64,000 nucleotides of DNA from Marsupella aquatica (lineage: Eukaryota > Plantae > Marchantiophyta), in assembly GCA_973895155.1 (NCBI GenBank), contig OZ316891.1, forward strand, positions 30,387,112 to 30,451,111. Direction: 5' to 3'. Positions within the stretch are counted from its first letter, which is position 1. The number at the start of each line of letters is the position of its first letter. This document shows positions 19,951 to 48,158 of this stretch, piece after piece. Below the pieces are notes generated by a model, which ran no database searches, was not told the origin of the DNA, and was given only the letters and a program-made list of their open reading frames with translations. The position numbers and the translations under genes were made by a program.

Positions 19951-20899
19951 CATATGATCCATTCTCCTGATGCTTCGACGGAATCATAACTCCGTCACGA
20001 TCACTTCAAACTCCAACCCGTTCGCATTCTCAAAGTCGAATGATAATGTAGCGATCGATCGAAACTCGATCGATTTTCTTGTCCTTCGAGACCAAAGATC
20101 ATCAGATCGACCTCAACGAACGGTTTTCTCGGCGTTTCTGAATTTTTCTCATGCCGCCAGTTTTCCACAGGAATGCTTTTCGTGCCTCTGTACAAGAAGT
20201 CATGGATGCTTGTCCATCTTACTCTTTGCCATCGAATTCTTCACAATTCTTCACAGAGACGACGCATCAACTAGAAAAGAACGACATGAGGGACAAATTG
20301 ATTGAGATGAGTTTGGCGGGAGAAAGGAGGGAGCGAATCGAAAGTGTGCCCTTGTGAGTGAGACCTAATTAACGCTATTGTTAGGGGTCCCATTACAAAC
20401 TCCAACCCAATTGTGTGGAAATTGTGAGAACAATTTCAATTGCACTCACCTATTGAGTTTCAATTGCACTCACCTATTGAGTTTTAATTGCACTCACTTA
20501 TTGAGTTTAATGATCAACTAGCCCAATGCCTTTCAGATACACTGTCCACCCCAATTTGTGTTAATGTCACTCATTGCTTAGCCCATTAAATTAGCCCTTT
20601 AAATTTTAAGTCACATAAAATAGTGCGAGTCATATTATTTGAGGTGTCTAACTAATTAGAGTCAACAAAGAAGTCACAGTGTTGGTCTCACTAATTATAG
20701 AACCCATGTGAAGCTTCTTCCAAAATCTCTAGCAGCACGATGAGCCACATCACCAATAGCAGTCACAAATAGCAAAATGTGGTTTTGCAAGAAAAACAAA
20801 TCCCAATGATTTGTGTTTGTGGCATGGCTAAGAAAAAGAGTTAGACCTAATGAGTGTAAAAACAATACAATGATGAAGAGTGACACTTGAAATAAACAA
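19948..20899 (+). repeat. Left arm of a long inverted repeat (partner 48159-49086)
   Basis: Reverse complement of 48159-49086, with roughly 15 substitutions counted by eye and one extra 24-bp unit. The ORF track shows mirrored ORFs (19970/48729, 20001/48839, 20151/48677). Confidence 0.97.
20434..20505. repeat. 24-bp tandem repeat (3 copies; 2 copies in the right arm)
   Basis: tttcaattgcactcacctattgag x3; this explains the 952 vs 928 bp arm length difference. Confidence 0.9.
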
Positions 20900-22917: not shown

Positions 22918-24719
22918 TCCTAAACTATAATACAAGGTTGCGCCCATTTATATAGTGGTCGTCATTCAAATATAGAGTGTCCAAAAAAAGATTCCAGCAA
23001 AAGAGGAAGGAATAAATAAAAGATAATAAAGTTTAGTGTGAATGAAAGGGGAAAGAACACTCTGCAAAAAGAAATAGTGAAATGAGACGACTAAAAAGGG
23101 AAATGAAATAAGCCCATGCAAGCACAAGGATCAATGTAGATCCCTCTACTTTCCATCAATGCATAAGTGAGAACAAGATGTTGTTTTCAATGCAAGTCAA
23201 AAATGTACTATTTATCCTCCATAGCTTTTGTGATAACTATCAAAAACTATAATACACTATGACATCAATTTATACCATGGTCATTTTTTAAAATTGCCCC
23301 ACCGTTTTGGGTGAAAAAAATCAAAACTGGAAAAAATTGAACCACTAAGACAAAAAAAACTCAAGTGGAAACTCAAGCCGTCACTTGGATTGCAGTGCCA
23401 CAAAGTCAGCACCAAGCCGCTGCAAGTCGCGATCCCCCCCGTCGCCGGCCAGCCCTGCCTAGCTCGCGACCGCCCACGCTGGGGCAGGGCTGGCTGGCTC
23501 CGCCCTCTACCTCCCAGGCCCCCTTTTGCATCCCCACCTCGTGGCCTCTCCTCCCGACTCCCTCCTGCCTCCCAGCCCCGCTCTCCCCGGCCTCTCGCCC
23601 TCTTGCCTCTCTAACCCTGCTCTCCTCTTTTGCCCTGACTCTCCCTCCTCGCGCTCCCCCACTCAACCCTAAATCCCTGCCTCGATGACCCATCCGATCC
23701 CCGCCCTCGCCCTTGCCAGGACTTGGTCTTGGTCTTGCCCTTGCCTGGACTCAGTCTCACCCTTGGACTCTGTCTTGCGTTTTGGTCTCGGACTCATGCC
23801 TAGACCGAGGACCGGGTTCCTACTGGGGATCATTCAAATTTGTAGGGCACAAAAAATAAGAAAATCTGGTAGAAGAAAGGAATATAAATAAGTAAATTTT
23901 AGTTTAGTATGACAACAACATCTTTTTACTTCACAATATCTTTCACATAACAAACCATTTGGCACCACATCATCTTTTTATTCATGACATCTTTCACATA
24001 ACATCTTTGGCAAAACGACTTCTTTTTTGTTAGTTACGCCAATTTTTTACTTGACAAAAACTATTTACTTGATGACAACGTTTTACTTGACGACATGTTT
24101 GGTAAAATGACTTTTTTTAAACTACGTCTTTTACTTGACAACATCTTTCACATAACTACATCTTTGAATTGGCAAAACAACTTCATTGTTCTTAACAACA
24201 TGGTTTTATTGCACGACATCTTGGGCGATACGACATCTTTTGTGTAATGTATGGGTATTGAGCTATTTTGTACTTAACAAAACCTTTGGCATAACGCGTT
24301 ACGCAACACGACCTCTATTTCTTCCACAACCTCTTGGCCGAGATGACATCTTTCTTCTCAACAACCTCTTGGCCAACACGACATCTTTTGTTCTCATCGA
24401 CTTCTTGGCTGACACGACATCTTTTGTTCTCACCGACATCTTTTGTTTTCAACGACATCTGGGGCGACACAACATCTTTTGTTCTCACCGACATCTTGGC
24501 CGAGATGACATCTTTTGTTTTCAACGACATCTTGGGCGACACGGCATCTTTCGTTCTCAACAACATCTTGGGCGACACGACATCTTTCTTCTCAATGACC
24601 TCTTGGCCGACACGTCATCTTTCTTCTCAACAACCTCTTGGCCAACACGACATCTTTTGTTCTCAAAAATATCTTGGTCGTCACGACATCTTTTGTGCAA
24701 CGCACGGGTATTGAGCTAG
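22918..24719 (+). mobile_element. Non-autonomous Helitron
   Basis: A|TCCTAAACTATAATA 5' end; 3' hairpin tgtgcaacgcacg followed by gggtattgagCTAG|T; no TSD. Removing it rejoins the host transposase in frame (aga a|tg tgc tat cat acc tgg). Confidence 0.88.
24310..24695. repeat. ~35-36-bp minisatellite inside the Helitron
   Basis: About 10 units of acgacatcttttgttctcaacgacatcttggccgac-like sequence, with more degenerate copies back to ~23910. Confidence 0.9.
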
Positions 24720-27184
24720 TGTGCTATCATACCTGGAGATATGAGTCCATCCATCGTCCAAAGGAAGTGTTATGCCTTATTCATGATAAGATAGATCATT
24801 CAAAGATAACTCTCCCAAGAATGCCCTTCAATCCTAAGCATTGGATGGTGCCCAAAAGTTCCCAATTACTGTCACTGGTATCCTTACTCATGGTCATGGT
24901 CCCAAGGCCATATAGCCCAATATCATGTTGGAGTGTGGTAAGGTGATGTCAACATCACTAGTGGGTCAATTGATTCAATACTAAGGATGTTGGAAAACCC
25001 AAATCCAATGATCAAATAACTTGTGGAGGGGCCAAACTTGACAAGTCTTTTTAAAGAAATCCTTTTTGAGAGAAAAGATATCTTGGAGGCAAGTGTCCTT
25101 AGAGAATTTGAGGATGACATAATTGCCTACATCTCAAGCCTAGGTATTTTACTCACAATCCTTTTATTATTAATAATATAATCTCACACACGTACACTGA
25201 CACTCTACTTTGTGTAGTTGTTGCTCCTCGTAGCCAAGGTTTCATTAATAGGGTGTAAACCGTAAACCCTACATTGGGGTTTAGGGTTTGACTAGGGTTT
25301 TATTTAAAAGCTTTTTGGCTTCTTATCTTGTACGATTTACTCAGTCACAATCCTTTAATATAAGCTTAGTCTACTTTTATGTTATGTAGTTGTTGGCTTT
25401 TCGTAGCAAACTAAGGTTCCATTATGGTCTAAACCCTAAACCTTACATTGGGGTTTAGAGTTTCACTATCTTCTTTTGTATGCATGAAATTCTGGGATTG
25501 TCCTAGGTTACATTGTGAAGCAGCACCTGAGGCACCAAAGTTCAGGCCCATTCCACGAGTATTGAAGTTACAACTGGATAATTGTGCCTCAGACAACAAG
25601 ATCAAATATATGATGACTTATTTGTCATTGTTGACGGCAAGGGAGGTGTTTGAAGAGGTTCATCTTGGTTTTATGGTGGTTGGGCATACTCATGAGGACG
25701 TTGACGGTATGTTCGGGCATTTTTCAGAGTCTATGACGCATAACCCCACATACTCATTGCTTGAGTTAATGTCCTTGTTCATGAGAGCAAGGACACCCAA
25801 TGCAGTCCCCCATTTCCTACAAGAGGTCCCAAATTTCAAAAGCTAGTTTAGCTCCATTCATGTTGAAGGGGCCTGAGGCATTGGTGGGGCATTTAAAACC
25901 CAGGTTGTTTAGGTTCTATGTTCGTCATGATAGTATGCCATGCTTTCCAATACAAAATGAAGTCAACTGATCAAGGATGGTTACCCAAGGAAGGTATTGA
26001 AATGTGGTCATGGAAAGATGACAAAAGCCCTCACATCCCAATTGGGGTGCCCAAACGGCTACTAGTGATGGAGTTGAATATGCTCCCTAAAATGCTGACA
26101 GGGTTGAAGAAGCATGTGTCATTCTTTGAGTTTATTCTAAAGCGAACCACAAAGGAAGAACCAAAGTGACGTTGGACAACTCTCATCAATTATTGGAATG
26201 ACATTGTAAATACTATACAGGGTGAGCAGGTGCAATATGAACCCGAAGGTGCACACAACTTGGAATACAGGTTTTGGCCTTTATCAATATGGAGAGAGCA
26301 CATTCCACCAAAATATCAAAATGTGGCATGTGAGTTGGAGGCAATAGTGGATTATTTGGGACCTGCAAAAGATAAACCTCCTGAGAGTTTTAACCCTAGG
26401 GTTGATGTCGTGAAGGGCTATTATGTGTTGGTACGGCCGGACGACTCAGACGTGAATGTTTAATATCCCGTCCATATGGGGTTAGTTGTTACAGATGTGA
26501 TAGAAGGACCAGTGAATGAACAAAACTTTCTTACTCATGTATGTGGCATTGAGTGGTTTAGACCATTTATGGCAAAGAAGCCACGTGGTCAATCAGACTG
26601 GCAACCATGAGAGCGATGGGCAGATTCTTGGGATAAGAAATGAGAACGTGATCCAACTCCAATATACAAGGAAGCTGAGACAATATATGTTTCCTCTGCC
26701 TTGTGGTGTTTCAAAGCATGCAAAGGACCAGTGACAAGGTTGGTTGGAATTCCAAAGAATGTTGCTGCCAAGGCAAGAGACTATCTCTTGACATGCATAG
26801 CAAGTGAAAAATCCTAGACGGTAATGAAGTTGGTAGTTTAGCACACAGTTTAAAAGGGAACTCAAAATAGTAGTAGCCAGAGAACTCAAGTTTAGACAAG
26901 TCTTATTGTCTAAGGGTGGGTTCCCACCAAGAGTTATTTTCTAAACTACATTTGTTAAATCAAAAGTTAACAGGCGCAGGGTTCCCGCACTAGTAGAAAC
27001 CGGGGCAATTTAGACCAAACCTTATAGGACTAAGGCCACTAAGTCCTTTTTGGCAACCTTAAATGACTCGAAACCATTGCCACGGTTCACATGAACACTA
27101 CAAAAGACTGTGAGTGCTTTTTGGTTTTGGATAAGACTATGAAAAGTACCCTTCTTTGTGAATGTATGAACACTCTAGCACATG

Positions 27185-27835
27185 ATGGGTTGTAGGGTTT
27201 AGTTGTGGGCTTTAATTTGATAATGGGCATATGGGGGGGGGGCACAATTCATTTGACGACCTCTTTACCAACATCCCGCTAACTTGAACACGGACAAACG
27301 GCGTAAATGTTGAAATTCCCTAATTTTGAATATACTCCATAGTGGGTTTGGGGGGGTTTAGGGCTCAAGGGTGGGCCAGTTACATGCGAAGGGTGTGGGG
27401 GTTCACCACTAAAGGGGTTTAGGGGGGTTTATATGCCAAGGGTGGGCCGGTTAGGTCTCAAGGGGGTGGGGGTCAGTAAAGGGGGTTTAGGGTCAGAGAA
27501 CACTCAATTGAAATAGTGATGCAGCGATTTAGGGTAAACGAACAGGGACCGTGGACCCTAACTTGTTTGCTGCCTTGGGAGGATTTGGAGAGCTGGAGGC
27601 AACATGCTTCATTGATCCTGAGCTTGCAAGCGGCGCTCTAAAACGGCCTGTGGCATTGCAAAAATAGTCTGGCCACAGTCGAGTTGTCAAGACATTTAGG
27701 GGGTTTATATGTCAAGGTGTGGGGGTGGCTGAGTTTTCACTAAAGGGGGTTTAGGGGGGGTTTATATGTCAAGGGTGGAGGGTTGAGATGTCAAGGGTGG
27801 GGGGTTTAGGGTTAAGGGGATGGGGGGTTTAGGGA
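27185..27835. repeat. G-rich subterminal region with many TTTAGGG (telobox/telomere-like) motifs
   Basis: Repeated gggggtttaggg and ggggtttatatg(t/c)caaggg modules at about 27350, 27415, 27481, 27765, 27800 and 27822. Confidence 0.8.
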
Positions 27836-28926
27836 CCATTGGATGGAGTCCATCGATCCCCACCATCAAAAAGTCGCATATTGGAAGTTTACTCAGCTGG
27901 GCTATACTTTGAGAGGGCCGAGTAGTCATGACTTAGCACTAGTTTTTTAGGGGCTAGACAAGGCTTGGAGTGTAATTAATTTAGACACTTGAAGTAGAGG
28001 GAATGGGGGCCTGGGGTTAACATGAAACCTGCATATTGATGGTCGAGATCACTCAAGGCAATCTCTTTTCATCCGGATGGCTGAGATCACTCTAGGGGCT
28101 GCCATGTCATAGTAAGGTTGGCGCCAAACGGCTCTTTGCACCCTTTTCACCCTCGCGCCTTTCAGTCGTGTTTTACTTTTCTCACAAAGTATCGAGGCTC
28201 AACGTTGAATGTTGCGGTTAGTGTCTGCCACTCAGCGTTTAGGGCGAGAGGGTCAAGGGGTTTAGCAAGGTTGCGCTGCTGTTTTGCCTCAAGAGTGTGC
28301 AATCAAGGCTTCAATCAGGTCTCCAGGAGCTGCGGGAGCGCTGTGCAAAGTGTTGCGGGAGGATGTGCAATGTGCTGCGGGAGTGCTGTGCAATGTGTTG
28401 TTGCAGGAGTGCTACTGCGGGAGTGCTGCGCGGGAGTCTGAGCTCAGTGGGAGGGTTTAGGTTTGGCTGATCGATGTGCATTTACAATTGTGGATAGTAG
28501 TTTGCATTGGAGTTGCAAGGAGCTCGCCAGAGTTGTGAAGGAGCAGGGTGTGGGAGTTGCGGGCTGCCATCGGCCCTCCTATTTTTCTTTTACTCCCATA
28601 GCGAGCTCCCGTATGAGCTCTTGTGTGAGCTTTGTTCAGCTGCGGTGGGTGCTGAGCTTATTTCCGTCAAGCTCAGTTGTGCTGTGCTGATTTTTGTCTA
28701 ACAAAGCTCGGGGGAGGGTTGCCGGTTGGACGTTGGAGCTGCGCTTGTGATATTTTGGGGTTCGGGCAAAGGGCGGAGGGCGGAGGGCGAAGATCAAGCA
28801 TTTTTGTTTTGCTAACGCTGCGTGGTGGAAACTGGACCTGCGAACTCCTTGTCTATGGTGTTGTGGAGCTGGGCGAGCTGCAACAAGGGACCGAGCCGGG
28901 CGACCTGTGAATTAAGGCCCATCGAT

Positions 28927-29428
28927 CGCTGCTGAAGGTTTGATGTCCAGATTTCTTGCCTGTGAGTCCCCATGTTTGCAGTCTCTGTCCCAATCTCTTG
29001 CGCAGTGCTCGGCGTAGTGATTACACTTACTGTGATTGACCACCTTGCATGATCTACATCTGTGGGCTGGACCCCAAGAAGTAGATTTCGGCGGCTACTT
29101 GCGAAAGGGATTGAAGAGATTGGAGTGCTTGCTCTCTTTGTCCCTCCCCTTGAAATTGTGGGCCTTAAAAAGGTCACTTGGCTTATGTAGTTTTGCTCCC
29201 CTGCGCTATGTCAATGCGCGCATGTCCGCTATGTCAATGCACATTTTTTCCCTCTTCTATGTCAGTCGCCGTTTGCCTATAATTGGACTGCTCATTTGAT
29301 GTCCACTCGTCTGATGTAATGCTTCCCGTTGCCGCTGCTGAAGGTTTGATGTCCAGATTTCTTGCCAAACAAAAGTCCCCATGTTTGCAGTGTCTATCCC
29401 AGTCTCTTGCGCAGTGCTCGGCGTAGTG
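28927..29428. repeat. Dispersed direct duplication (~95 bp) at 28927-29019 and 29333-29428
   Basis: cgctgctgaaggtttgatgtccagatttcttgcc...gcagtgctcggcgtagtg occurs twice. Confidence 0.9.
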
Positions 29429-31087
29429 CCCATGATTCGATAGGGAACTGATTCATGAACTGTGACTACTTTTATGCTCTGCAATGTGAATATGTTGGCA
29501 TTTGCTGCACTTGGTGTTGATAGTTTTTGTTAAAACTTCAATTTAAGTACGTGGGAGACAGACGGGAAGTCGGACGGGGAGGTAGAAGTGCACGGGAGAC
29601 AGACGGGGAGACAGGAGGTAGCGAGCTATTGATTTGCGCCTTACATGACACCGCCCAACATTCACCTGCTACAAGGACTCATCTTGGTGCGCTTTGAGAA
29701 TCTCCGTGCTGCAAGGTGAGACTCTTTCCTGGTCGTGAACTTATATATGCCCTCTCATAGTCTCGTTTAATATTGAGGAATGACTATATGCTTCCGTGAC
29801 ACGGCTCATCTGTCCATTTTTTACTGTGCACGGCTCATCTGTCCATTTTTTATAGCATGATTGACGTCAGCTGTGGCTTAGTCCACCTTCTTGTAACAAA
29901 GCAGGCGGTGATTGGACCAGACCGTGTACTTGGAGTTGCCCCTATCCAGCTGAAGGAGCGTCGAGCACTCTAAGGCAAGAGTTTCTCCTGCATTGTTACC
30001 TGGTTACAAGGTTACTCTAAGGCAAGAGTTTCTCCTGCATTGACAACTTTCCCATGCCACCTTCAATCAGTTTTCCTTTGCACCTTGGCTTGATCATTTC
30101 AAAAAACCTGTCACATTGAGCACGGAATCTATCGCCTAAGTTCAGCCTTTCAGCTTTTTTCCGGACTATCACATAGCGAGTCGGTCGCGCTACCGGAAGT
30201 ACTACCACTTTTACTATATGGTTCATCTCAGTGCCTTTTATGGAATGCTTTCTTGTTCTTCTACTCGGCATGGCATCATCCTGATTGCCCGTCGCTGTGA
30301 CCAGCAACGGAAAGCGTAGACTCGCGTTTGGATTCAAAGTCTAATCCAGAGTGTAAGGCTCTGAGCAGACCATAATAGGAAGCCTGCCTGATTCTCTAGC
30401 CGATCCGACAGAGAGCCATCCTTGCAAAACCTGTTTGAGTGTGTTCCAGTGTTCTAGTGTTCAGCTTTCGAGTGGGTTTTGTTATGATTTGATTTGGTGA
30501 TTGTTTTGGAGTTGTAGCCGTGGTCAAACGCATGTCTATTAAAAACAAATTCATGGAGCTCAGGTTGCTGCTGTATATAAACCGCAACAGGATCCATAAC
30601 TGCCTGCAGTCCCAGCAAATCATACATGCTACAGTCACAGGATAGGAGTTCAAGAAGTCTTCACAGTTTCTCATTTTTGTAGAATCTGAGATGTTGCTGG
30701 CCCAGGAGATGAGTTTCCCTTAAGAGTCAGGGACGTCAGCAGTGTGGGCCATGTAATACAGTTGAGAATGATGGCAAGTATAATTTGTTAATGGGTCCAA
30801 TGCCATGTTTGTGAGCTATTGAGTTGGATAGGAGAAAAAAACCAAAACATTGTCGCAACTGCTTCCAGAACAATCATTCATGGTTAGACTAAGCTCGACT
30901 GAACACCCCTCGCTTGCATGGGGCGGACACAATGCGGAATAGGCTGTCATGGAGTTGTCGAATGGATCTTCAATTTTCATGATAAATGTCCCCGGGCGTC
31001 CGTCCTATGTGTAGATTTTATAGGGGATGATGGGCGAGGATCATCTTTCCCATCTTCCTGAAGCTTTGTCTGCTTTCTGCCACCTCA

Positions 31088-32057
31088 GTGGAGGTTCACT
31101 TGCACAACACGACAACCAGTGAGTTTTCTCTTTGCTGCAACCTGCAAGGTGAGACTTTCGATCTTTCTAGATGAAAAAACAGGATCCAAATATGATTTAT
31201 GTACATGTCCATGGAGAACATGGTTTTATATACATGCTCTTTGTCTCAGGAACTTAGCATCAAATATGTACTATGCACCTTTCATGCTATGTGTATATTG
31301 TGACCTGTAGTTGGAACCAATTTAGTGAGTGGGAGATGATAAGTGCAGGTTGGTTGCTGTGGGCAAGGCAAGTCGACCTCCTACTCGCCTTGCTCATCAA
31401 AGGACGTGAACAGAGGACATCACAACAAAAGCGACATTTATGGTGAGGACCCGCAACGCTGAACATGTGTGGCTTGCACGCAAGGCAGAGATGTTGCGCC
31501 TTGAGTATGTCAGACTGGGGATTCTTCCAGCCCAATCTGCATGGTACTTTGAGTACTCTCACGGTTTGCTTATGGCCATTATTTGCAATTTGCTGCTACT
31601 AATATGTCTCCGACTGAGCAGCATACACCGGAAGTAAGCAATAGTGGAGGTTTAACTGCACATCAACACATCCAGTGAACTACCTCTTTGCTGCTCACTG
31701 GAGGGTGAGACTTTCACTCTTTCTGGATATTGTAGTTTGTAAGCAAGTTGATTAGGAGTGTTTCATGCTATGTTTACATTGTGACCCCTAGCTGGAACCA
31801 ATGGAATGACACAGTGAGTGGGAACTGATAATTTAAGGTTGGTTGTTGTTGGTGAGGCAAGTACAGCTCCTGCTCACCTTGCTGATCGAAGGTGCTTATC
31901 AGAGGACGTGAACACACGACACTCCACAAAAGCAACACTTATGGTGAGGACCCGCAATGCTGAACATGTGCGGCTTGCACGCAAGGCAGAGATGTTGCGC
32001 CTTGAGTATGTCAGACTTGGGATCCTTCCAGCCCAGTCTACATGGTACTTTGAGTAC
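31088..32057. repeat. Internal tandem duplication (31088-31557 and ~31644-32057)
   Basis: Both copies share gtggaggtt...ggtgagactttc and the block encoding MVRTRNAEHVxLARKAEMLRLEYVRLGILPAQSxWYFEY. Confidence 0.9.
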
Positions 32058-32436
32058 CCAGTTGTTGCCAGGAATAACTACGTACAGCCGCCCTGTACCT
32101 GCTTCTCCACCCTTCCCAACATCCTTGGTATTTTTGTCTCTCGTACATGACCCGCCACAAATTAGGGCCCAAGGGTGTGTGCACAGTTGCCAGTATGACT
32201 GTCCTGCCTGTAGGGCTTCTGGCCTAGAGTTGGATGACCGTTCTCTTGGATGTCGGTTTTTCATAGAGCACAATGTATCATCTGGAACCACTCGCCATCC
32301 TGCAGTGTGCCTGGCGATGTCACTTGTCCTGCCCTCCCAGACCCCACCACCGGTCACTTTGGTGTCTACACATGTTTGGATCACACGCTGTAGAAGACCA
32401 CTTGTCACACCGCATGCACAGACCAGAGACCATTGA
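31818..32436 (+). pseudogene. Possible orphan cargo gene with Cys-rich motifs (two overlapping frames, probable frameshift near 32110)
   Basis: Frame 1 ...WYFEYPVVARNNYVQPPCTC; frame 2 ...GCVHSCQYDCPACRASG...; the N-terminal part is duplicated upstream. No family recognised. Confidence 0.35.
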
Positions 32437-33062
32437 CCTATAACTTAACACTTTGACTTGAACAGAGAGGATATTTACTTAAGATTTTGAATTATGAGCA
32501 ATTTTGGGTCCAGGGTTTACGGTCAACAGTACATAACTTATCCTATTATGGCTGCACTAAGTACAATATCCTAATTTAAGAGGCTAGCAAGCTCACTTAA
32601 AAGTCTCCTTTCAAAGACTGGAATTAATGGGCCATGTGATAACCTGGAAAAAGTGATTTATGCCTAACTTATTTGTCTCATTCACTATCATAGCCTATTT
32701 AGGATGTATAAATTACAACCCTGATCACACTGCTTGATACCAATCCTGTTCAAAAAATGCCTGTTTTACATGTCACGACTGTTATATGTGATTCAAATGC
32801 ATTAAATCTTGTTGCAGATCTCCTTTGGTGAATCATAGCCACAAAATTGAGGTGTAGGTGGAGCTATTGTACGAGGGGATCAGTTTTTAGTGTGGGCTCA
32901 ACAAACCAAAAAGTATGTCTACTCTGCACATGTGTGTGAACATTTCATTGCAGTAGCAATTGCCACTCTAGTCTATATGCTACACTGTACTTTTTGTACA
33001 CTGCACTAAATTGTATTGTCTGTGCACTCTACTAAATTGTACTATCTGTCTCAGGCGTAGGC

Positions 33063-33743
33063 ATGGCACGCCCTAAAATCCAAGCCAAGAAGCGGGGGAC
33101 AGAGGTGAGCAACATAGGTATAGTTGGGCCAGATGGTAGTAACTTCTCCGCAAGTTAGATTTTCCAGAAGGCAGCTCATTGTTGTGCCATTTGTGACGAT
33201 GGTGGTGGCTTAGCCATATGTGAGGGCCCTTGCATGAGGCATTTCCACCTCAACCCGGAGTCTGACCTTGCTGCAGAAAACAACTGTCCAGGGGTGGGCC
33301 TCCCGTCAGCACACCAGGGAGGCTGGATGTGCACTGATTGTTTGGAGAAGCAGGCTAAGTGTGCACAGTGTGGGAAGTTGGGGTCTTATGAGGGCTCTGT
33401 TGATGCTCCACCACTTGTTAGGAAATACCCTGACAGATATTGTGTGAGGTTCTTTTGTTTTTCATGTTTGCCCGATCTTGCCACAGCTTGCCCACTTCAT
33501 AAGTGCAAGGCATGTGGTCAGCACGATGAAGATTTCTGGGTGGACATAGTCCACTGTGTTAGGTGTCCCACCATGTGGCACTTTCATTGTTTGAAGGAGC
33601 GTCAAGCAGAAGGCTATGCTTGTGACAGACACATCTATCATCACTCTGCACATGGTGTTGATCGATGGATCTTCTATTGTCATCGCCATGCCATAGATCC
33701 TACTTTGCACACTCCCATGAGAGATCACATTTCTTGGCTTTGA
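33063..33743 (+). CDS. Stand-alone EDM2-type composite PHD-finger protein (CACTA cargo)
   Basis: CAICDDGGGLAICEGPCMRHFH...CTDC..CAQCGKLGS..CPLHKCKAC..CVRCPTMWHFHCL..IFYCHRHAIDPTLHTPMRDHISW parallels the EDM2 PHD region as I recall it (CAICDNGG..CEGxCLRSFH..CPLHKC..CRRCP..IYCxEHEIDxELxTPxRDH). An in-frame TAG at 33156 is either removed by a 63-nt GT-AG intron (33105-33167) or is a nonsense mutation. Confidence 0.85.
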
Positions 33744-34341
33744 ACCTGAATAATGTACATGCATAGTGCACCTGATGTGGATACCTTGGAGATTGCAGAC
33801 ATTCCAATTTTGAGAAGAAGGACCTCTGTAGGAGAGGATGCTTAGGCAACAAGTACCCTAAGTTCATTACTTGTTCCTGGGTACATGCCTTCAAAAACTC
33901 CCCTTAAGCCTTCTAGGAACTTTTTTAACTCTGCAATCATTTTGATCACGACTTACATGACACTGCTTAAATTAAATCAGGATTTCTCATTATGAGCATA
34001 TAAGTTACAAGGCTATTTAATTTGCGAGAATTCCCTTAAAGTGTACCAACATTTTCTATTCTCATTGAATGTCTGCCCATTTACAACATCTGTATGTGGC
34101 ATCACAAAACAATTGCACTTGTCACCTTCAATATTGTCAAGGCACATATTCAAACTATGAGGTGCATGCTTGCAGGTGTCTAGTACGTTTGTCCCAATAT
34201 TTCTCCCGTTTGGAATCGGAGCAGAGACTCACCAGACGACTGGATTGGACCAAGTTATAAACGCAGCATTTTAAGGGCCCTCTGATTATCAGGTGAACGC
34301 ATTATCTTCCGGTCTGCAGTGATTAGGTGGCCCGTGTGTAC

Positions 34342-35106
34342 ATGGCCTCTAGGAAACGTACAAAGGTTGACCACCCGCCTCTGTTGGTTGGAATCAAAGC
34401 CATTTTGATTCCTGGCCACTATGGGTTCACCCAAGTGAGTTGGCCAATCGTACAAAAACGATTCTCAGAGTTCCATGGGACTGAAGTCAAGGATATCACT
34501 CCACAGACTACACATGTTGTTGCGGGGACATGGCTGGATGTGATGAACAACTGGTCATGGTCCTTCATTGATTCTGCCATTACCAACCAAGGTCTAAAAG
34601 TAGTTGAAGTCTCTTGGCTGACCGATTCTGTTAAACATAGGTGTGTACAGAGTACTGAGCAATATGAGTTGTGGGAGAGTGAGGAGGCCACTGCAGAGGC
34701 TTTGGCTGAAAAGGAAGCCTATGAAGCAGCGGCAGAGAAACCCAACTTTGCTTCTGTCCAATATGGACCTGTTGTCAACATAGGACACCATCCTATGCGT
34801 GCAGATGCTATATTGAATGAGCATGGCAAGGAGAGAAATACCATTATGAAGGGGTTCAGTGTGGTATTTACAGAAGAAGGAATTGGGGAGACTAAGTGCA
34901 GATTGTACAAGTCTATAGTTGTTGAGCTAGGTGGGACAGTGGAGGAGAGTCTAACAGAAACCTCCACTCATGTTGTAGGTCTGTCATACATGAAAATATG
35001 CAGAAAATTCTTTAAGACAACAGTGCGTGATTTTGTCATGAACAACAATCTTTGGGTGCTTTCCCCTGATTGGCTTCTGGAATCAGCAGCTAGAGGGAAG
35101 CGATAG
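34342..35106 (+). CDS. Tandem-BRCT protein (CACTA cargo)
   Basis: Two BRCT signatures: TTHVV...VVEVSWLTDSVKHRCVQSTEQYEL and LGGTVEESLTETSTHVV...LSPDWLLESAARGKR. The TAG at 35104 is probably premature, as the frame continues NAWDFDIF to 35190. An NLS-like RKRTK lies at the N-terminus. Confidence 0.82.
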   Translation: MASRKRTKVDHPPLLVGIKAILIPGHYGFTQVSWPIVQKRFSEFHGTEVKDITPQTTHVVAGTWLDVMNNWSWSFIDSAITNQGLKVVEVSWLTDSVKHRCVQSTEQYELWESEEATAEALAEKEAYEAAAEKPNFASVQYGPVVNIGHHPMRADAILNEHGKERNTIMKGFSVVFTEEGIGETKCRLYKSIVVELGGTVEESLTETSTHVVGLSYMKICRKFFKTTVRDFVMNNNLWVLSPDWLLESAARGKR

Positions 35107-35366
35107 AATGCTTGGGACTTTGATATTTTTGAGGCCTGGCCCTCCAAGATTCAGCGGAGATGTATGCTTAGCAAAGGTGGGAGAGAGTGAGGAGTAGGAG
35201 TCCCTCATATTTTTGTATAAATCACAATTTTGTAATAAATGTGATCCTTGAACTAACTCATCTTGTCATGGTTGGTCGCAGTTGAAGTGATTGTTGTTTC
35301 CTGCTGCGTGGGGTGTGACTGTGAATCTACTTGCTGGGCTCTGTTTGGCTGAAGACTTTGGTGGGT

Positions 35367-35900
35367 ATGCTGCCTCTTCCAGACCGTCAGGCCCTATGTA
35401 GGGTCCTCCTACGGGTTGCATCGTGCATGGCTACTGCTTGGGCTTACTTGTGTGGATTGGTAACCAGACAGAGTGTAGCTCCATCCGAGATAATGCCTGC
35501 AGACCTTGGATGTGTTGTGAATGCTGTGGTGAATGAGGATGCACAGTCGGAAGAGGACATTTACTTTTCAGCAGATGAGTTAGACAAGCACGATGCTGTA
35601 GGTGGTTCCTTGTTGCCTGATTTGGCAGATGATATAGTTCTTACACATGTCTGGCCGAGGGTTCTTGTGGTGTCTGGCGCACAAGATATCTGCAAATATA
35701 GACTAATTAGTACCCAGTGGAGGGACTTGGTAGCAACATGTGCACCATGGAGGGCATTGCTGCCACTGCTTGTAGGCACGGATCGAAGACCACCATGGCA
35801 TGAGCAGGGTTTAGACCTTGATGACTTAATGTACATGCCTGAGTACCTCAGGGCTGAGTGGCATCGACAACAGGATTGGTATCCGTATTTGATGTGGTAG
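35367..35900 (+). CDS. Small F-box-like protein (CACTA cargo)
   Basis: SLLPDLADDIVLTHVWPRV...KYRLISTQWRDLV (~35607-35735) fits the plant F-box pattern LLPxLPDD..R+...R.V...WR.LV. No kelch or LRR domain follows. Start codon uncertain. Confidence 0.65.
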   Translation: MLPLPDRQALCRVLLRVASCMATAWAYLCGLVTRQSVAPSEIMPADLGCVVNAVVNEDAQSEEDIYFSADELDKHDAVGGSLLPDLADDIVLTHVWPRVLVVSGAQDICKYRLISTQWRDLVATCAPWRALLPLLVGTDRRPPWHEQGLDLDDLMYMPEYLRAEWHRQQDWYPYLMW

Positions 35901-36226
35901 TAAGATGAGGACATCTCACACCGGTCTCGCACCTGGCACCTGTGTCTATGACTATACATGATTGGACTCTGATATGGTCATGGATGTACGTGCAGAGGCA
36001 GTACATGTGAGGACAGCGGAGGAGTTGACACCCTCAAACATTTAGGAATTTTGTCTCATTCACTTGAGAATAGGTACATGACTCAGGCACCTATATTTTT
36101 TGTTTTTTTGTTTTTTTGGAACGTTACGTATTTTGGCAAGTACAGTCGGGGGTGAAATCCTTAACAGGAAGTGTATTTTTCACTTGCATAATAAAATGAC
36201 AGGGTGCTGAGTGCGTGTGTATAGTG

Positions 36227-39200
36227 ATGGCTCCAAGGTTGCCTCTTCACAACCCATTTAGGATTAGGCATCATGATTCTAAATTGTGGATGCGTGAACA
36301 AGCCCGGGCCGCCCAAGGTAGGAGTAGGAGGATGAGATGCCCATGCACACAGTGCCAAGGATTCAAGTCGTTGAGTTTGAACACTGTGCACCTTCACCTG
36401 CTGCGGCATGAAAGGCACCCTCGGTGGAGGGTTTGGAATGTACCAACAGAAGAAGACTCCTCTGATGAAGAGTGGAGAGCTGACTTTGTGGATTCTAATA
36501 CAACTAGGCATAGAGACTACGTAGAGCAGGACATAGACTGTGCAGAGGATGGTCCTGGGGTCCAACATGAGAACGTGGATGACCAAGATGGAGATGGAGA
36601 GGCAGTCACTGAGGACGGTGGGATGGATGTCCCAAGAATGGTTCAAGAGATTTTTGAAGACCTTGATGCTTTTTACGACACAGTGGAATCAGAAGAGGAC
36701 AATGAACCGCAGCCACACATTGGTGACGGCCAAGCTGAACCTGACTTTGACATTGGGGAAGGTGCAGCAGAGAGGGAGTGGGTGTTTGGGGGCCCAAAAC
36801 ACATCAAAGAAGCTTGCATTCCTATCTATGAGGGGTCGAACTGCTCCAAGCTGGGTTTTGTCATGTTGTTGTTGAACATCTGTGGCAATCACAATGTTCC
36901 CAATATATTTGTGACAGAGTTGTTGACCTTCCTGCGCCGAAATGTGTTACCAGATGGTAATTCAATTCCAAAAAATATGTACGAGGCTAGGAAATTGATG
37001 TCTAACCTTGGGCTGAACTATGTGTCTATTGACGCATGCCCTGATGGGTGTGTTCTCTTTCGCAAAGAGCATGCAGATAAATTGACATGCCCTCATTGTG
37101 GTAAGCACAGGTACAAGAATGTAGGGAAATGTACACACCCTACCAAGGTTCTTCGTCATTTTCCTCTCATTCCTAGACTACAACGTCTGTTTAGATGCCC
37201 TGCCATTTCCAAGCTGATGACATGGACTCCTGATAACAAGAGCAGTGATGGCCTGCAGCGTCATATTGGAGATTCCAACCATTGGAAATTTGTTGATGAG
37301 AGGTGGCCACAGTTTGCTGCAGAGAAGCGGAACTTTAGATTTGGTCTATCACTGGATGGAGTAAACCCATTTCGAGACAAAAACAACCGTTATTCATGTT
37401 GGCCGGTTACGCTGCTAAATTACAACCTTCCCCATGGATGACTACAAAGAGGTTTTTTGTCATGATGGTGCTGTTAATCCCTGGACCAGCTTCTGTGACC
37501 GAGCAATTCATAGATATCATGTTGGCTCCAGCAGTGGAAGAGTGGAAGACTTTGTGGATAGAAGGGGTGTTAACCCATGATGTTCTGAAGGGGCTTCTTC
37601 GACCCAGCCCCTTTAGACTGCATGCAATTTGTTTGCTGGATATAGCAGATTACCCAGGCCATGGCATCATATCTGGACGAGTGACAAAGGGCTATGTGGG
37701 GTGCACACCATGTGGGAAAAATGTGACAAGTGAGTGGTCGCATGCCCTGCACAGTATGAAATTTCAGGGGCATAGAAGGTATCTGCCTGTTGATCATCCT
37801 TACAGGCACACACGGTCTCAAATTGCACACTTCAACAACAAAACAGAGCTTCGTGGCCCACCACAAAGGGTCACCAGAGAGCAAGTCCTGAGGTGGGCAG
37901 CCAGGAAGGCTGATTGGGACAAGAGAAGTGCCACTGATCGAGAACCTGAGGATCCAGTGGTGAAACACGGTGTGAAAAGACAGACCTTGATGGACTTGGA
38001 GTACTGGAGGGTAATGTACTTAGCCTCCAGCCCCTGTATGATTGCAATTTTAGATTGGAGCAATGGTGGATTGATGTTGGTTACAATCCTCCTATGTGGT
38101 TAATTAGTGTTTCTGTTGTTGAATTCTTTGCTTTGTGGAGTGCAGGAATTCGAGCCCAGCAAACACAATGTGGACGTCATGCACATTGAGAAAAATATTT
38201 GTGAGAGCTTGCTGAAGTTCTTGTCGGGTGAGAAAGATACAGGAGTAGTTCGAGCTGATATGCAACAGAAGGGGATTCGCCCTCACCTTTGGTTGAAGCC
38301 CCATGCAAGCAATCCCAATGTACTTCTCAAGTTCCAAGCTCCCTATGTGTGCACACAGGATGAATGGAAGACATTCTTGTATAGATTGAGTTGTCTGAAA
38401 GTGCCCTCTGGCTATGCTGGTGCCTTCAAGAAGCATATTACAAAGAATAAACTTGGCAGTATGAAAACACATGACTACCATGTGTTGATGCAGCACATTC
38501 TGCCCCTATGCCTCAGAGGTCTCATGCAGAAACTAGTCCGTAATGTCATTCTTCGACTGTGCAATGTATTTCGCCGTATATGTGTGAAAGTGTGGGATCC
38601 CCAAGGATTGGAGCAGTTGAAGCAGGATGCTGCTTATGTCCTCTATGACTTGGAGATATACTTCCCCCCTGCTTTCTTTGATGTTATGACTCATCTCCTA
38701 ATCCATGTGGTAGAAGAGCTAGGGCAGTATGGGCCAGTCAGTACCAGATGGATGTACCCTATGGAGCGATACATGAAGTTGTTGAAAGGTCATGTGAGAA
38801 CATACTACAGGCCAGAGGCTTCCATGGCATTGGGGTACATTAAGGATGAGATGTTGGGATTCCTAACAGAGTACATGGCTGGGTCTGGTGAAGCTATGAC
38901 AAGAGTTTGGAAATCTGGTGAAGATGATGGAGTGAGTGGCGAGGTTGTTGAAGGTGTGGGACGTGCTGTTCAGCTGCCTGTTGCGATTCGAGACAAGGCT
39001 CATTCATATGTGCTGGCAAATACAGAGCCTATGCAACCATGGTGGAGGTGAGTGATTGAATTGACTTGCCTTTGTTGTGATGCTTCTTGTCTGTTCCAAG
39101 GGTGATCTTAGGTTGTCATGTGTTGTTTAGACCTAACTATGCCTGTACCTCATATTGCAGGGAATATGATATGCAAAAAGCTGCACACTCTGGGCAGCAG

Positions 39201-39920
39201 GATCCCTTCCCACAGTTCGAGCAGTGGATTCGGGTGACAATTCGAGAGCATAGTAGACATCACCCAGATATGGAGAAGGATTTGTATCTTCTATCTGTGC
39301 CACCACGATTGTCTATTCTGACCTACAAACGGATGAGAGCTTATGGAAATCATTATCGAGTGAGGGATGAGCAGGGTGACCATTGTGTATCATATGATTG
39401 TGGTTTGATTTCTGTGTTTGAGCAGAGAACCTCTGAAGAACAGAGGGGGTGGATGAAGATGGGTTACGTGGGGGAGTTGACCGACATTTGGGTGTTGAAT
39501 TATGGTAACACAAGTGTCCCAGTGATATTGATGAAGGGATCATGGGTGAAATCAGAGTGGCAGAGACCAAGGGCCACCATGAAGCGTGATCATGATGGGT
39601 TCTTGTTGGCCAATTTTAGGTCCAGAGTACCAGAATGGTCTGAGCCTTTTGTTTTCCCTAGCCAAGTTGAACAGGCTTTCTTTGCAGATGTGGAGGAGTC
39701 ACATGGCTGGAGGGTGGTATGCCATAGCCAAGCACGGAACAGGCGGATGGATGGAAGTAAAGTAGAGTTCAGTTTGGATGACCATGCTGCATTCGAGCAT
39801 CCTAGTCATGAGACTGTACTTCCAACTCGGGCAGGGACTGACTACATCCCCTTAACATTGAGAGAGACATATGATGAACCTGGGCAAATGGAATATGATG
39901 AGGTTGATGATTTGCAATAG
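36227..39920 (+). pseudogene. CACTA TnpD/Tnp2 transposase (transposase-associated CPC domain, Transposase_21, DUF4218- and DUF4216-like), frameshifted
   Basis: RCPCTQC, IDACPDGCVLF, LRHFPLIPRLQRLF, LSLDGVNPF, YNLP/PW, DVMHIEKN, FPPAFFDVMTHL, WMYPMERYM, EPFVFPSQVEQAFF. Introns 38011-38145 and 39048-39160. A 1-bp frameshift lies at ~37430. Confidence 0.95.
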
Positions 39921-40097
39921 GCAACAGCTGGCGATTGGCAAGTATGAGGTTGAGGATGACTACCTGCACAGAGTCACAGAACGGGAATTGCTGCCTGGAA
40001 TGATGTTTAGGATAGTTGGATATGCATAAAATTGATTGATACTTTGAATTTAGTGTGCTGATTCTCCCTGTTTGGTTGTGGGTGCTGTGCAGAAGCT

Positions 40098-43000
40098 ATG
40101 GGGGAAGAGGGTGATGACATGGAGACAGACATGGGGCTTGGAGAGTGGGGTGAAGAGGAAAGATTGGATATGGATGGAGACCCAGATGCAGGGGGCTCAC
40201 AGAAAAATGCACCTGTGCAAGATGCACAGGGCCCTCATCAAGTCCCAGGTAGGTGGGCAGCTAGAGAGAAATCACATAATCCATACCCTAGAAGGAGCCA
40301 GAGTTATTGGCAAGGGACGCCTGATAATTATGATGATGACTATGATGGAGCAGAAGATGGATGGGATGAATATGAACACCCAGAGCGTGGTAGAGACGGG
40401 TACAGAGGGCAATGGAAAGGTGAGGAGGATGATTGGACAAGTAAGTGCCTTGTGCTAGTGATTTTGTGATGGTAGTAGAGATTTAGCTCAATATGCACTT
40501 ATCTGATGTGTAGCTAGGGCAAAGAGTTTATCTTACAGGTCCATGAGTGTGGCATGTACCTGTTGGTATGCAGACTCTGATTGGGACAATCACGAAAACA
40601 ACAAAGGCCATCCACGTTCAGATAGGAGGCAATCATTCACAGGCGAGAGAAACGCCCCTAATTCATCAAGACAAAGCAATAGGACAGGTGGTCCAGAACC
40701 ATCTATGCGCCAAGGGAGAGGTAACTTGGTCATTGCAGAATTGCTCTGAAGTCCACTGTATATTTGGCAGCGGGATTTATGATTCATACTTACCTAATGT
40801 AAGTGACTGTAAATGGATCCTGTAAATGTGCAGGGACTCCAGGGAGGTTTGGACAATGCAATCCAGGCCGTGGGGGGAGATCAGGCCGTGGAGGGACCCC
40901 AGGCCGTGGGGGGACACCAGGCCGTGGAGGGACACCTAGTAGCGCTTCAGGGAGTACCAAGGTAGGAGACAGTAACAAATTTGGTAAAGTAGAAGTGAAT
41001 TCCGAAGGTTGGATAACTCCCACATGTGATGGTAAGAACCGTTGACATTCTGACCTAAGAGGAGAAGTATTGCGTTGGTTAGATTTGAGCATTACAGAGT
41101 TTAGGAGTCAGAACAAAGCTGATTGGGCTGCTATCTGCAAGGACATTCTTGAACGGTGGGAGTATGTTGGTAATGATGGTAAGGGCCCAGTTGAAGATTG
41201 CATATCAGATTATGCAATGAGGATTTTGAAACAAGAGAGGCATAGGTTGAAAAGGATGTGGATAGACAATGGTTCTAACAGGAGAATGCCACCACCCCCA
41301 TCATTGGAACTGGATCAATGGACACGGTTAATCAAAGGGTTCATGTCGGAGGCTGGACAGAGCAAGAGTGAACTGATGTCAAATGCTCGAGGCAAAGTGA
41401 AACACCTTTCACAGGCTGGGAGAGGAAGTTATGCTCCAGTGAAAGAACAATTGGTAAGGCAGTGACATGCCTGATAGTAAGCCTCAAACTTATCATCTTG
41501 CTACCATTATTACATTTTCATTGACAATCAACACTTGGTTTCATTCATATGTATGTTGATGTGGACTGCAGAAGAAATTGACAGGTGAAGAACCATCAGC
41601 ACAAGAAGTGAGAGAGGAGTTCATGAAACAAAGGAGTGAGGTGACAAGTGTAACTTCCAAACAGGTGATTATGTTGTAATTCTGTATGTTCTGTGACTAT
41701 TTGGCCTTGAGCATCAGAAAGAAATGTAGTAGGAAGTAAGCAACCAGTTCTTGGGGACAGTTATCTGAGATATGTAAGCTGTGTTATGACAGGGAACTGT
41801 TACAACTCTCACAGAGATGTGTGAACGGTTGAAGTCATTAGAGTGTGGACTCCCTCGAGTGGAAAGTAAATTGGCTGATCGTTTAGATATTGTGGAGGCA
41901 TCTGTAGCGAACCTTCTTGCATCAGTGGAATCTAATTTCAAGCTTGTGATTGAAAAATTGGGTGGTTCCCAACCAAACAATGAGGGCAACATTGTACAAA
42001 GTGTGCCCTTGTTAACAAAAAAGGGAATTGGCAAATCTGACACAGGTATGGAAATGACACCGGCCCATTGTTCATTGTGTCCTATGTTCAAATGTCAGAA
42101 GTAAGTTTTCATGAATTGAGTGAATGGTTTGAATGCAGGAAGAGTGGAGGCAGAGAAGGACCCTGTAATCAGTAAGCAGAAGGGCAAGAAGGTTGCTGAG
42201 ACAGGTAACCTACTATGATCCAGTACATTACATTTGAAAAGTGCATGGAGTTTTGTGAAGCTTAAGCCGGTTGGAGGTAATCTTTTCTGTAAGAACTGGT
42301 TGGATGAACTGGGATCTGAAGTGACATCATGATTGATGTATCAGGTGATTCAAAGAGCAATAATGAAGAAGATGTGTCCAGTGCCTCAGTGACCATAGCC
42401 AAGGAGGTATCAGGTAAGCTGATGCTTTAAATTCCTCTATATGAATGTTGAGCAACAATTCAGTGGTTAATAGATTCAACCTGAATATTGTGGTGTGTTT
42501 ATTGATCAACAGAAGCAGACATGGAGCATATGGCAATGGCAAAGAAGGGGAAGAAGGCTGTTCATAATGGTAAGGAGATAGTGACAACTTTGTGGTTGGT
42601 GACATGTACATTTAGCACATGTGATGAGTGATTGACTTATGTTGGACATGACACTGAATTGTAGTTGATGCAGAGTTGACAGACTCTCAACCAAGTGGGA
42701 GTAGGGTGAAGCGACGTCGAAACTTGGGAGCAACATTGGATGCAAGTAAGATTGTAGATGCTTCAATTGAAGCAAGTACAATGTTGGCAGATACTGAGAT
42801 GATGTCGCAGGGAAATCCTGCTACACAATCAGAAGTGTCAAATATGGATGCAGATTCTTTGAAGAAGAGTGTAGCCAATTCTCGATCACCAGCACAAAAC
42901 ACTCGTGCCAAAGTCATGACTCGCAACCAAGGTATGAATAATGTCATGTATAAGCCACCCAGGAAAGCCAAGAAAAACAGCCAGGTTAAGGTGGAGGTGA

Positions 43001-43269
43001 TAGCCACAGCAGAGCCAGTCCATAATCTTCTATCATGGGAGGATGACTCGCAGGTATGTGTGGGTACAGGCATTTTGCGACCGGATCATGCAAAATTCCA
43101 TGGCAAAGTGGTCCCAGATGACCATGTAGTAGTGTTGTTGACTACAGTGATTGTATCTGATTGTAATTTGCCATTTCCGAATAGAGACGATGATCCACCT
43201 CAGGAAATAATTGCAGATGCAGTAGGATCTCTTGTGCTCTGGCCATCAGAGTGTGTTAGTCTGCAGTGA
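40098..43269 (+). pseudogene. CACTA TnpA-like multi-exon gene (Ptta/En/Spm-type core, RGG repeats, C-terminal DAVGSLVLWP domain)
   Basis: LKQERHRLKR..PPP..DQWTRLI..KSELMSNARGK..GRGSY core; coiled-coil exon; C-terminal FHGK..LPFP..IADAVGSLVLWP; 18-bp PGRGGT repeats at ~40863-40936; in-frame TGA at 41043. Confidence 0.8.
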
Positions 43270-43759
43270 CTGAATGCAAGTGTAGATAGCATCATGTGAA
43301 TTGTGTCACATTTTGACATTGCCTTGGAAAGATCCAAGAAATATCTGTACCAATTTTTCCATTTGGTAAAGAGGAGGAAGGAGACGTTGTGTGTGACATT
43401 GATATTTCTGAATTCTGTATGTATGAAACAAGTGATTGATGTCAAACTATGGCTCTATGGTGATTGTCTATGATACTTGAATCTATTTTATCATTTCAGT
43501 ATTAGTGTGTATGGTATAGAGGAATACTTTGTGACCTTCTTTGTAGTCTGTTTGAATCTGTGAATTCATATTAGTGTACATGGTATAGAAGATGGCTTTC
43601 TGAAACTATGTATTCTAATGTTAACATGATAAATGGTGAACTTATAGAGTGAGTTCATTCCAAGTACACAATAAAACATGAATGCAATATGTTATTTGTG
43701 CACAAGAGTGGGTTCATTCCAAGTAGTATAGTGGGGTCTTCATCACTCATATCCAGTTG

Positions 43760-44060
43760 ACATGAAAGACTTATACATACCCCACAAAGTATATTTAAAG
43801 ACTACCCTCCATAACCTTTTTAGTCGTTCCCAACGACTCATCATCGCAGCCCATAAAAGACTGAAAATGACTCACCAAAGCTACCCACACAAAGACTAAA
43901 ATAGACTGAAAATCCAGTCTATTAAACGACTTATAAACCAGTTCTATAAAGGACTCAGTTGATTATAGTAACAAAACATACGACTCGCAGTCCTATAAAG
44001 GACTAGAGTCCTTCCCAGTCGTTTCCAAGTCCTATACGGTACTGAATAGTCGTTTAATGG
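43760..44060. repeat. CACTA right subterminal repeats (putative TnpA-binding GACT/AGTC motifs)
   Basis: More than 15 aaagact/acgact/ggact motifs or their complements; a sparser set occurs at 27020-27140. Confidence 0.7.
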
Positions 44061-47000: not shown

Positions 47001-47158
47001 CACCCACCTCCTTGCCCGAGGGCATCAAATTAAAAATCCTCTTGACAAACAAAGCTTGTAGACCAACACAATTTCAAACAAAAGCACTAGTATTCCGGGT
47101 AGGCACGATCCATCAGAGTTTTTTTGCAAGCTTGTTTCTAGACAATCTATCTTGCTTA

Positions 47159-48065: not shown

Positions 48066-48158
48066 TTAGAGTGAGTGTGGTGGTCCACCCAGACTTATTT
48101 TCAAGATTATTGAGCTCAAGATTTAGCAAAGTCTGCTCAATTTCTTTAACCCTGGTTT

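Follow-up and report, generated by a model that had tools for sequence, protein, structure and literature searches.

The 64,000-nucleotide stretch of Marsupella aquatica contig OZ316891.1 that was analysed here (positions 30,387,112 to 30,451,111 of the forward strand; hereafter the window, in whose own numbering all positions are given) contains a 17.1-kb CACTA transposable element (26988-44090, plus strand) that carries, between its leader region and its TnpD transposase gene, four cargo open reading frames (ORFs), all on the plus strand: an orphan Cys-rich ORF, a PHD gene, a twin-BRCT gene and an F-box-like ORF. The four cargo genes are probably long-kept accessory factors that aid the element against its host, chiefly through a stand-alone PHD protein of the EDM2 type that would act as a decoy or competitor. 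Selection on the element very likely maintains the cargo genes, and each of them is predicted, with good probability, to be expressed as a small protein of its own. An earlier note, made from the sequence alone, had described four co-oriented ORFs upstream of TnpD on the transposase strand, within a CACTA element defined by terminal inverted repeats (TIRs) and a target-site duplication, and had taken them for maintained accessory genes rather than random Pack-type fragments. Its observation is confirmed, and its interpretation is partly supported.

The PHD gene (33063-33743, plus strand, 226 codons), which was recognised from homologues, a profile search and a structural model, is, as judged from its sequence, an EDM2-type protein composed of the PHD module only, and not an EDM2. 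Its Pfam matches are of the NSD type and lie under the cutoff (E 4e-5 and 2e-4), and BLASTP comparisons gave an E value of 1e-23 for Arabidopsis EDM2 (P0158), versus 1e-7 for an NSD-like protein. The profile search, against 1.84 billion representatives, yielded 428 matches at E <= 0.001, in which short stand-alone proteins ranked first, followed by long proteins with DNMT1-RFD and PHD; four of the 10 clusters of matches that were looked up are named EDM2, and one contains Arabidopsis EDM2 itself. Among the 25 Cys/His columns common to three EDM2-type proteins, 22 are kept in the window protein and 23 in P0001, and the C-terminal TP-x-RDH motif is present in the window protein as in EDM2, whereas the NSD-like P0049 is without it. 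Identity between the window protein and host-type domains is 30-37%. The DNMT1-RFD and the long C-terminal methyltransferase-like region of EDM2 are absent from the ORF and from its homologues of 217-245 amino acids, in which the PHD is terminal. The homologues, at 84, 81, 59 and 42% identity, are open ORFs of 217-245 amino acids with a shared C-terminal DHISW. Furthermore, the predicted model (pLDDT 87.9) found its best fold matches among H3-binding PZP and NSD PHD modules, with low global TM-scores. The nearest named relatives are liverwort proteins, and several database relatives are frameshifted or truncated. Scans at the DNA level found no relatives of the PHD gene in metagenome contigs or in genome contigs, and a scan of viral contigs returned one weak, broken match (L081) without a transposase.

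In a quick tree of 73 of the 154 domain rows, 16 stand-alone PHD rows made up one side of a branch (SH-aLRT 91), and the stand-alone rows have in common a 21-residue deletion in PHD2 and a His-to-Cys change. On these sequences, the stand-alone PHD proteins, of about 220 amino acids, form a deep clade. Short or C-terminally ending EDM2-type PHD proteins also occur in annotated plant genomes (P0053, P0013 and P0030; Marchantia, 280 amino acids, and Calypogeia, 747 amino acids), and those of them present in the tree group with the host-type proteins, outside the stand-alone clade.

Many of the stand-alone PHD proteins begin with a sequence resembling the histone H3 tail, A-R-x-K-x-x-A-K-K. Histone H3 starts with ARTK and has ARKS at positions 7-10 (excerpt of PMC6028506). 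When the pattern A-R-x-K-x-x-A-[RK]-K was scored over its six positions, 6 of 17 family N-termini, including that of the window, matched at five or six of them directly behind Met, and three more did so at an internal position, while the pattern was found in none of the 157 other proteins compared and in none of 104 segments preceding host PHDs; the summed score was attained in none of 5000 shuffles. Another five of the 22 family rows had no usable N-terminus, and the best-scoring Met was chosen where there were several. The basic N-termini AKKRG and RKRTK, to which the earlier note had drawn attention, are indeed present.

The copy of the element in the window is decayed. Contigs from public sequencing runs were compared with it over 30900-36400 and 34900-52400, and the family variant counts rest on 40 of 489 and 40 of 317 differing positions; judged at these listed positions, the lesions of the window copy are mostly private. 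For instance, two lesions mark the PHD gene of the window, a TAG at 33156 (codon 32) and, at 33427, a change from Cys to Tyr; in the family contigs the stop is absent (T33156C at 99.9-100% of depth in all four runs) and 33427 is G, encoding Cys. The contigs free of the PHD stop come under three organism labels. A 63-nucleotide in-frame intron across this stop was considered and ruled out, as the family has CAG there and homologues read through. Likewise, the one-base frameshift of TnpD at 37429 is private (+C at full depth in runs X3 and X5 and at 96% in X1), and the TGA stop at 41043 in the TnpA-like gene is absent from the family (A41045G at full depth in all four runs). At 50 listed positions X3 mostly differs from the window, and 28 of these differences are of the C-to-T type on either strand; 18 of the 28 lie at CHG, against a background of 18.5% of cytosines (p 1e-7). 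This enrichment indicates that the window copy decayed while its CHG sites were methylated; CHG methylation and H3K9me2 are coupled (excerpt of PMC3632883).

Read depth in X3 was 1768-1978 for cargo contigs (n=4, 0-3 differences) and 1766-2073 for contigs of the transposase region (n=5), compared with 9.2 and 15 for contigs of a host gene and a unique flank. Cargo and transposase are thus in a 1:1 ratio by depth, with the cargo constant across copies, and the depth, a rough guide only, suggests a family of about 120-225 near-identical copies. The family is autonomous and recently amplified, and its TnpD is without the frameshift, which is not what is found in a Pack-CACTA, a non-autonomous carrier of near-identical, recent host fragments. 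The view that the cargo genes are maintained has therefore held up, given that the ORFs are found intact among family copies or homologues and that depth is 1:1; it draws as well on full-length relatives at 35-84% identity, on kept zinc ligands and ends, and on a BRCT gene in a sister element, which is described below. That the ORFs are mostly open in the window itself is true of the F-box-like ORF but not of the PHD gene, with its stop and its Cys-to-Tyr change, of the BRCT gene, with an early stop, or of the orphan, whose frame is broken. Similarly, intactness across copies was found for the PHD gene, whose stop is absent from the family, but in the orphan indels at 32079 and 32256 vary among copies.

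The twin-BRCT gene (34342-35190, plus strand) was identified by two stretches of Pfam BRCT similarity (E 1e-13) and by homologues, one of which (P0005) is 60% identical over its full length. Its ORF runs from the ATG at 34342 to a TAG at 35104-35106, and similarity continues towards 35190; judged from homologues, two of which read through, this TAG would be premature by about 28 codons. The predicted model, of low confidence (pLDDT 51), has two alpha/beta units, and the fold search gave matches to tandem BRCT proteins; the two repeats are separated by a linker of about 55 residues and are not closely packed. Candidate donors are BRCA1 (E 6e-8), ligase IV (0.004) and human Pol lambda (0.009), among which the fold search did not discriminate; a likeness to the N-terminal BRCT of plant Pol lambda is also possible.

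A survey of 80 metagenome loci with TnpD relatives revealed one, L001, with an intact twin-BRCT ORF (875-1683) on the same strand as TnpD and 5' of it. L001 is the sister of the window element in a FastTree of TnpD (support 95), with 56% identity in TnpD and about 27-29% in BRCT, where both repeats aligned. Synonymous sites between the two are saturated, the proportions of synonymous (pS) and nonsynonymous (pN) differences being 0.76 and 0.50 for BRCT, with a pS of 0.86 for TnpD. Since the BRCT gene lies upstream of TnpD in this sister element, the simplest reading is long co-inheritance of BRCT and transposase. Just upstream of the BRCT gene of L001, another ORF (231-650, 140 codons, no Pfam match) may be a further cargo gene, and no intact F-box was found between BRCT and TnpD. 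The cassette therefore seems to turn over between lineages, as L001 keeps the BRCT gene, differs upstream of it and has no intact F-box. Conservation of cargo order among relatives extends to BRCT upstream of TnpD in L001, but the full order of four genes was seen in the window family only. A Pfam scan of 50 of the 117 other long ORFs in the related loci detected no further cargo, and scans of viral contigs gave no match to BRCT or TnpD. A scan of genome contigs returned a single 977-bp piece of TnpD (L082) in a Streptomyces assembly, which is of plant type, 40% identical and probably contamination.

The F-box-like ORF (35367-35900, plus strand, 177 amino acids) is intact, and has an acidic stretch before the motif and a short conserved tail. 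Its Pfam match (E 0.08-0.1) is under the cutoff; its three homologues, of 126-183 amino acids and 51-55% identity, are full-length. F-box clusters of the Atlas were retrieved at 0.86-0.91 with few shared features, the E value for FBXL5 was 0.17, and no known substrate domain was found in the tail of about 50 residues. The proposal that three of the ORFs are each reduced to a single interaction module thus fits the PHD gene, as a composite EDM2-type module, and the twin BRCT (Pfam 1e-13), whereas the F-box assignment is weak.

The orphan (31941-32436, plus strand) is, on its substitution pattern, a coding gene. Its start had been placed at 31818, which turned out to be a stop-to-stop boundary; the real start is the ATG at 31941, followed by a change of frame at 32079. 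There, four extra bases break the frame of the window copy that are lacking in many family contigs. Without them, reading passes into the frame of 31948, and the supported coding frame spans 32083-32256: four of five listed variants are silent in that frame, as against none of five in each other frame. Because the indel at 32256 is polymorphic, the gene ends at either 32393 or 32436. The orphan has a Cys cluster, and neither Pfam nor the Atlas provided a match. An older duplicate of its 5' part (31280-31556, plus strand, 81% identity) has an ATG at 31440, and over the 40 codons from there pS is 0.18 versus a pN of 0.03.

The ends of the element are those of the CACTA superfamily, with short CACTA TIRs and a 3-bp duplication, in agreement with the earlier description. 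The 18-bp TIRs are perfect; the 5' TIR, starting with CACTAG, occupies 26988-27005 on the plus strand and the 3' TIR 44073-44090 on the minus strand, and the CCG duplication lies at 26985-26987 on the left and at 44091-44093 on the right. Inside the left end are G-rich subterminal direct repeats of the families D4 and D16 (27343-27831), followed by the 5' leader region (29714-31728, plus strand), in which the donor-like GGTGAGACT occurs three times (29714, 31147 and 31703), marking possible non-coding leader exons. TnpD (36227-39920, plus strand) consists of three coding blocks and is identified in Pfam by Transposase_21 (E 1e-32), DUF4218 (2e-25) and DUF4216 (2e-5, under its cutoff). Head-to-tail behind it stand the putative exons of a TnpA-like second gene (40803-43269, plus strand), whose Transposase_24 match (E 0.006, 17.2 bits) is below the Pfam cutoff of 28.7. 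AATAAA is found downstream of the BRCT ORF and of the F-box ORF.

How such genes could serve the element may be considered in terms of the host proteins that they resemble. EDM2 has been reported to bind H3K9me2 and, together with ASI1 and AIPP1, to help transcription pass through heterochromatin in introns as far as distal poly(A) sites (excerpts of PMC7472560 and PMC9910501). The cargo proteins, being non-catalytic, would act on host proteins to the benefit of the element. It is predicted, with odds slightly in its favour, that the PHD protein shares with EDM2 the ability to bind methylated H3; on the H3K9me2 nucleosomes of the element it would then interfere with host readers or with premature polyadenylation, and, without the other domains of EDM2 and with an H3-like tail, it would be a competitor or decoy of the silencing readers. 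An anti-silencing role is favoured because the element is of great length, is CHG-methylated and carries poly(A)-like signals behind its upstream ORFs, and we tentatively suggest that the PHD protein weakens the silencing or the premature polyadenylation of the element's long transcript. With similar caution, the domain class of the twin BRCT points to a possible engagement of end-joining proteins at the breaks of cut-and-paste transposition, and that of the F-box-like protein to a possible binding of SKP1, as a decoy or a minimal adaptor. The toolkit of heterochromatin reading, break repair and degradation advanced in the earlier note would accordingly be one read from the domains only. A complete scenario, in which a land-plant CACTA lineage acquired the H3K9me2-reading module of EDM2 in the distant past, made of it a stand-alone counter-silencing protein with an H3 mimic, added a cassette of end-joining adaptor and SCF decoy, and so reached more than 100 intact copies, is rather unlikely to hold in all its parts.

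Several observations weigh against an accessory function of this kind. An acidic stretch stands before PHD1 in EDM2 but not in the family; because of this, the PHD2 deletion and the His-to-Cys change, the specificity may differ from that of EDM2. The H3-like tail is missing from 8 of the 17 family N-termini, it could simply serve nuclear localisation, and the choice of pattern followed inspection of the sequences, which are related; given this kinship, the post hoc pattern, the choice of Met and the possible nuclear signal, we regard it as a lead only. For the PHD and F-box genes, the tie to CACTA is documented in the window family only. The phosphopeptide pocket of tandem BRCT proteins such as BRCA1 and MDC1 consists of Ser/Thr-Gly and Lys, and no Ser/Thr is found at the aligned position in either repeat in any of the three sequences. 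F-box scores of the window and two homologues are 13-19.3 bits (E down to 0.001) versus a Pfam cutoff of 20.5. Cargo in the 80 TnpD-related loci amounts to one BRCT, one weak F-box-like ORF and no PHD, with at least 2 kb of upstream sequence present in only 16 of the 56 loci with a mapped TnpD start; the F-box-like ORF, in L044 (E 0.003), lies some 2 kb 5' of a decayed TnpD, and the ends of that element are unmapped. Finally, the BRCT stop at 35104 is not among the listed variant positions, and run X3, from which copy number was estimated, is possibly the window's own source.

The main alternative to anti-silencing for the PHD protein is integration targeting, in which it would be a targeting or tethering factor that brings TnpA and TnpD to H3K9me2, at the element ends or at safe heterochromatic sites, with no counter-silencing. 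The same conservation would be expected in this case; the window copy lies inside a repeat cluster between two genes, its CHG-biased decay indicates that it ended up methylated and silenced, and complexes of accessory protein and transposase have been modelled for Arabidopsis EN/SPM (excerpt of PMC13547354). However, no transposase-binding part is visible in the 226-amino-acid protein, which is almost wholly PHD, related CACTA elements without the cassette exist, and one insertion site says little, so that we consider targeting unlikely. A decoy or competitor of silencing readers is preferred also to the idea that the cargo ORFs, once useful, are now relics multiplied in a recent burst and are open only because that burst is young. 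Near-identical copies have indeed had little time to decay, the orphan indels at 32079 and 32256 are polymorphic, and frameshifted or truncated relatives occur in databases; but frames and zinc ligands are conserved over 35-84% identity, contigs of three organism labels are without the PHD stop, and the BRCT gene of L001 is intact despite saturated synonymous sites, which makes this idea decidedly unlikely.

It could also be supposed that the ORFs are alternative exons of one spliced unit of the En/Spm style, in which they would be linked to exons of the leader or the transposase. In En/Spm, alternative splicing gives rise to both TnpA and TnpD (excerpt of PMC13547354), and the co-oriented ORFs, the three donor-like sites of the leader and the AG acceptors shortly before most ATGs are compatible with such a unit. 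By a heuristic score, the acceptor percentiles, which favour neither reading, are 0.90 for PHD, 0.99 for BRCT, 0.63 for F-box, 0.76 for TnpD, 0.29 for the orphan and 0.59 for the L001 BRCT. Homologues, however, conserve for each ORF a Met, a basic N-terminus and a stop of its own, AATAAA stands behind the BRCT and F-box ORFs, and shared non-coding leader exons would still yield separate proteins, all of which renders a single spliced unit very improbable. Capture of neutral host gene fragments in a recent Pack-CACTA event is known as a process (excerpt of PMC13317346), and the window copy does have stops. This explanation is nevertheless largely refuted and hardly credible here: identity to the closest PHD of host type is no more than 30-37% (in a comparison outside which the host's own genome lay), the stand-alone PHDs group apart, the cargo is constant across copies of an autonomous family, and the BRCT gene is common to the sister element.

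In the surroundings of the element, inverted arms of about 950 bp (19948-20899 and 48159-49086, 96% identical) enclose 27 kb including the CACTA element, and each adjoins the 5' end of a host gene: the left one DNA-PKcs, the right one an isomerase-like gene, presumably of the histidine-biosynthesis type. The depth of the right-arm contig in X3 is about three times that of the host gene, and no target duplication was found at the arm ends examined. The DNA-PKcs gene (1-19350, minus strand) is multi-exonic, with one open stretch of 1393 codons; DNA-PKcs is not known from flowering plants, which, together with the liverwort proteins nearest to the PHD, points to a probable non-flowering host. To the left of the CACTA element lie a decayed transposase-like gene (22296-26800, with DUF7869 at 25433-25843, E 3e-28) and a 36-bp tandem array (24303-24696). 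As the sequence at 26880 resembles a loose end at 46036, the CACTA element was probably inserted into an older repeat. A decayed Ty1/copia-like retrotransposon, so labelled from inspection of its ORFs, is located at 56962-62946 on the minus strand, with long terminal repeats of about 217 bp that are 93% identical.

The element shares with maize En/Spm and Arabidopsis EN/SPM the CACTA ends, the 3-bp duplication and TnpD, with putative TnpA-like exons behind it (excerpt of PMC13547354), and differs from them by four additional ORFs upstream of TnpD. Its closest parallel in organisation is Plavaka, of the EnSpm/CACTA superfamily in the red alga Bostrychia, which, in bioRxiv 10.1101/2025.02.11.637652, is also described as 17-19 kb long and high in copy number, with a fixed accessory cassette (PAG1-3) that includes chromatin-related domains and one gene of unknown function and whose genes move between lineages. 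The Plavaka genes encode enzymes there (adenine methylase with SET; ParB with 2OG oxygenase), whereas the window cargo consists of non-catalytic readers and adaptors on a plant-type Transposase_21 element, and no cargo ORF had a Pfam match to the domains of PAG2 (methylase and SET) or PAG3 (ParB and 2OG oxygenase). VANDAL elements with VANC and KIU likewise have an accessory protein, probably derived by co-option from a chromatin protein of the host, that is proposed to counter silencing (excerpts of PMC13317346 and PMC13547354). VANC, however, belongs to the Mutator-like superfamily, binds DNA motifs and causes sequence-specific hypomethylation according to the same excerpts, and the window protein is of the histone-reader type; Pfam scans of the window gave no VANC-like match. 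Compared with host EDM2 of the ASI1-AIPP1-EDM2 complex, with which it shares the composite PHD module, the transposon-encoded protein is about 220 instead of about 1300 amino acids long, is without the DNMT1-RFD and the C-terminal region, has a basic H3-like N-terminus in place of the acidic stretch, and belongs to a clade with a shortened PHD2. Influenza NS1 and G9a are examples of known histone mimics, non-histone proteins in which a short motif aligns in register with 1-ARTK-4 and 7-ARKS-10 of H3 (excerpt of PMC6028506); in comparison with them, the mimicry here is a sequence pattern only.

Among active plant TIR elements, with 775 CACTA clusters in Table S6 of PMC12973397, all five rows with PHD and the three rows with F-box are MULE, and one of three BRCT rows is a CACTA singleton. 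The combination of PHD, BRCT and F-box in a CACTA element was not found in a literature search outside which Repbase and subscription papers lay; the earlier note's supposition that it is undescribed thus stands for the combination, but not for the wider concept, as an accessory cassette in the CACTA superfamily is already known from Plavaka. Few plant transposons have a demonstrated anti-silencing factor; the evidence is described as confined to context-specific cases (PMC12973397), and VANDAL is named the sole self-modifying example in bioRxiv 10.1101/2025.02.11.637652. Clusters of more than 50 copies make up only 30 of the 3203 active ones, and few active clusters are reported from mosses and algae (PMC12973397); because clusters of this size are rare, a young family of probably more than 100 copies in what is likely a non-flowering plant is unusual. 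The family is therefore a good system in which to ask what accessory genes buy a transposon, and each of the small cargo genes can be tested separately. If the proposed role of the PHD protein is true, a transposon-borne copy of the host reader for intronic heterochromatin would represent a new route of counter-defence.

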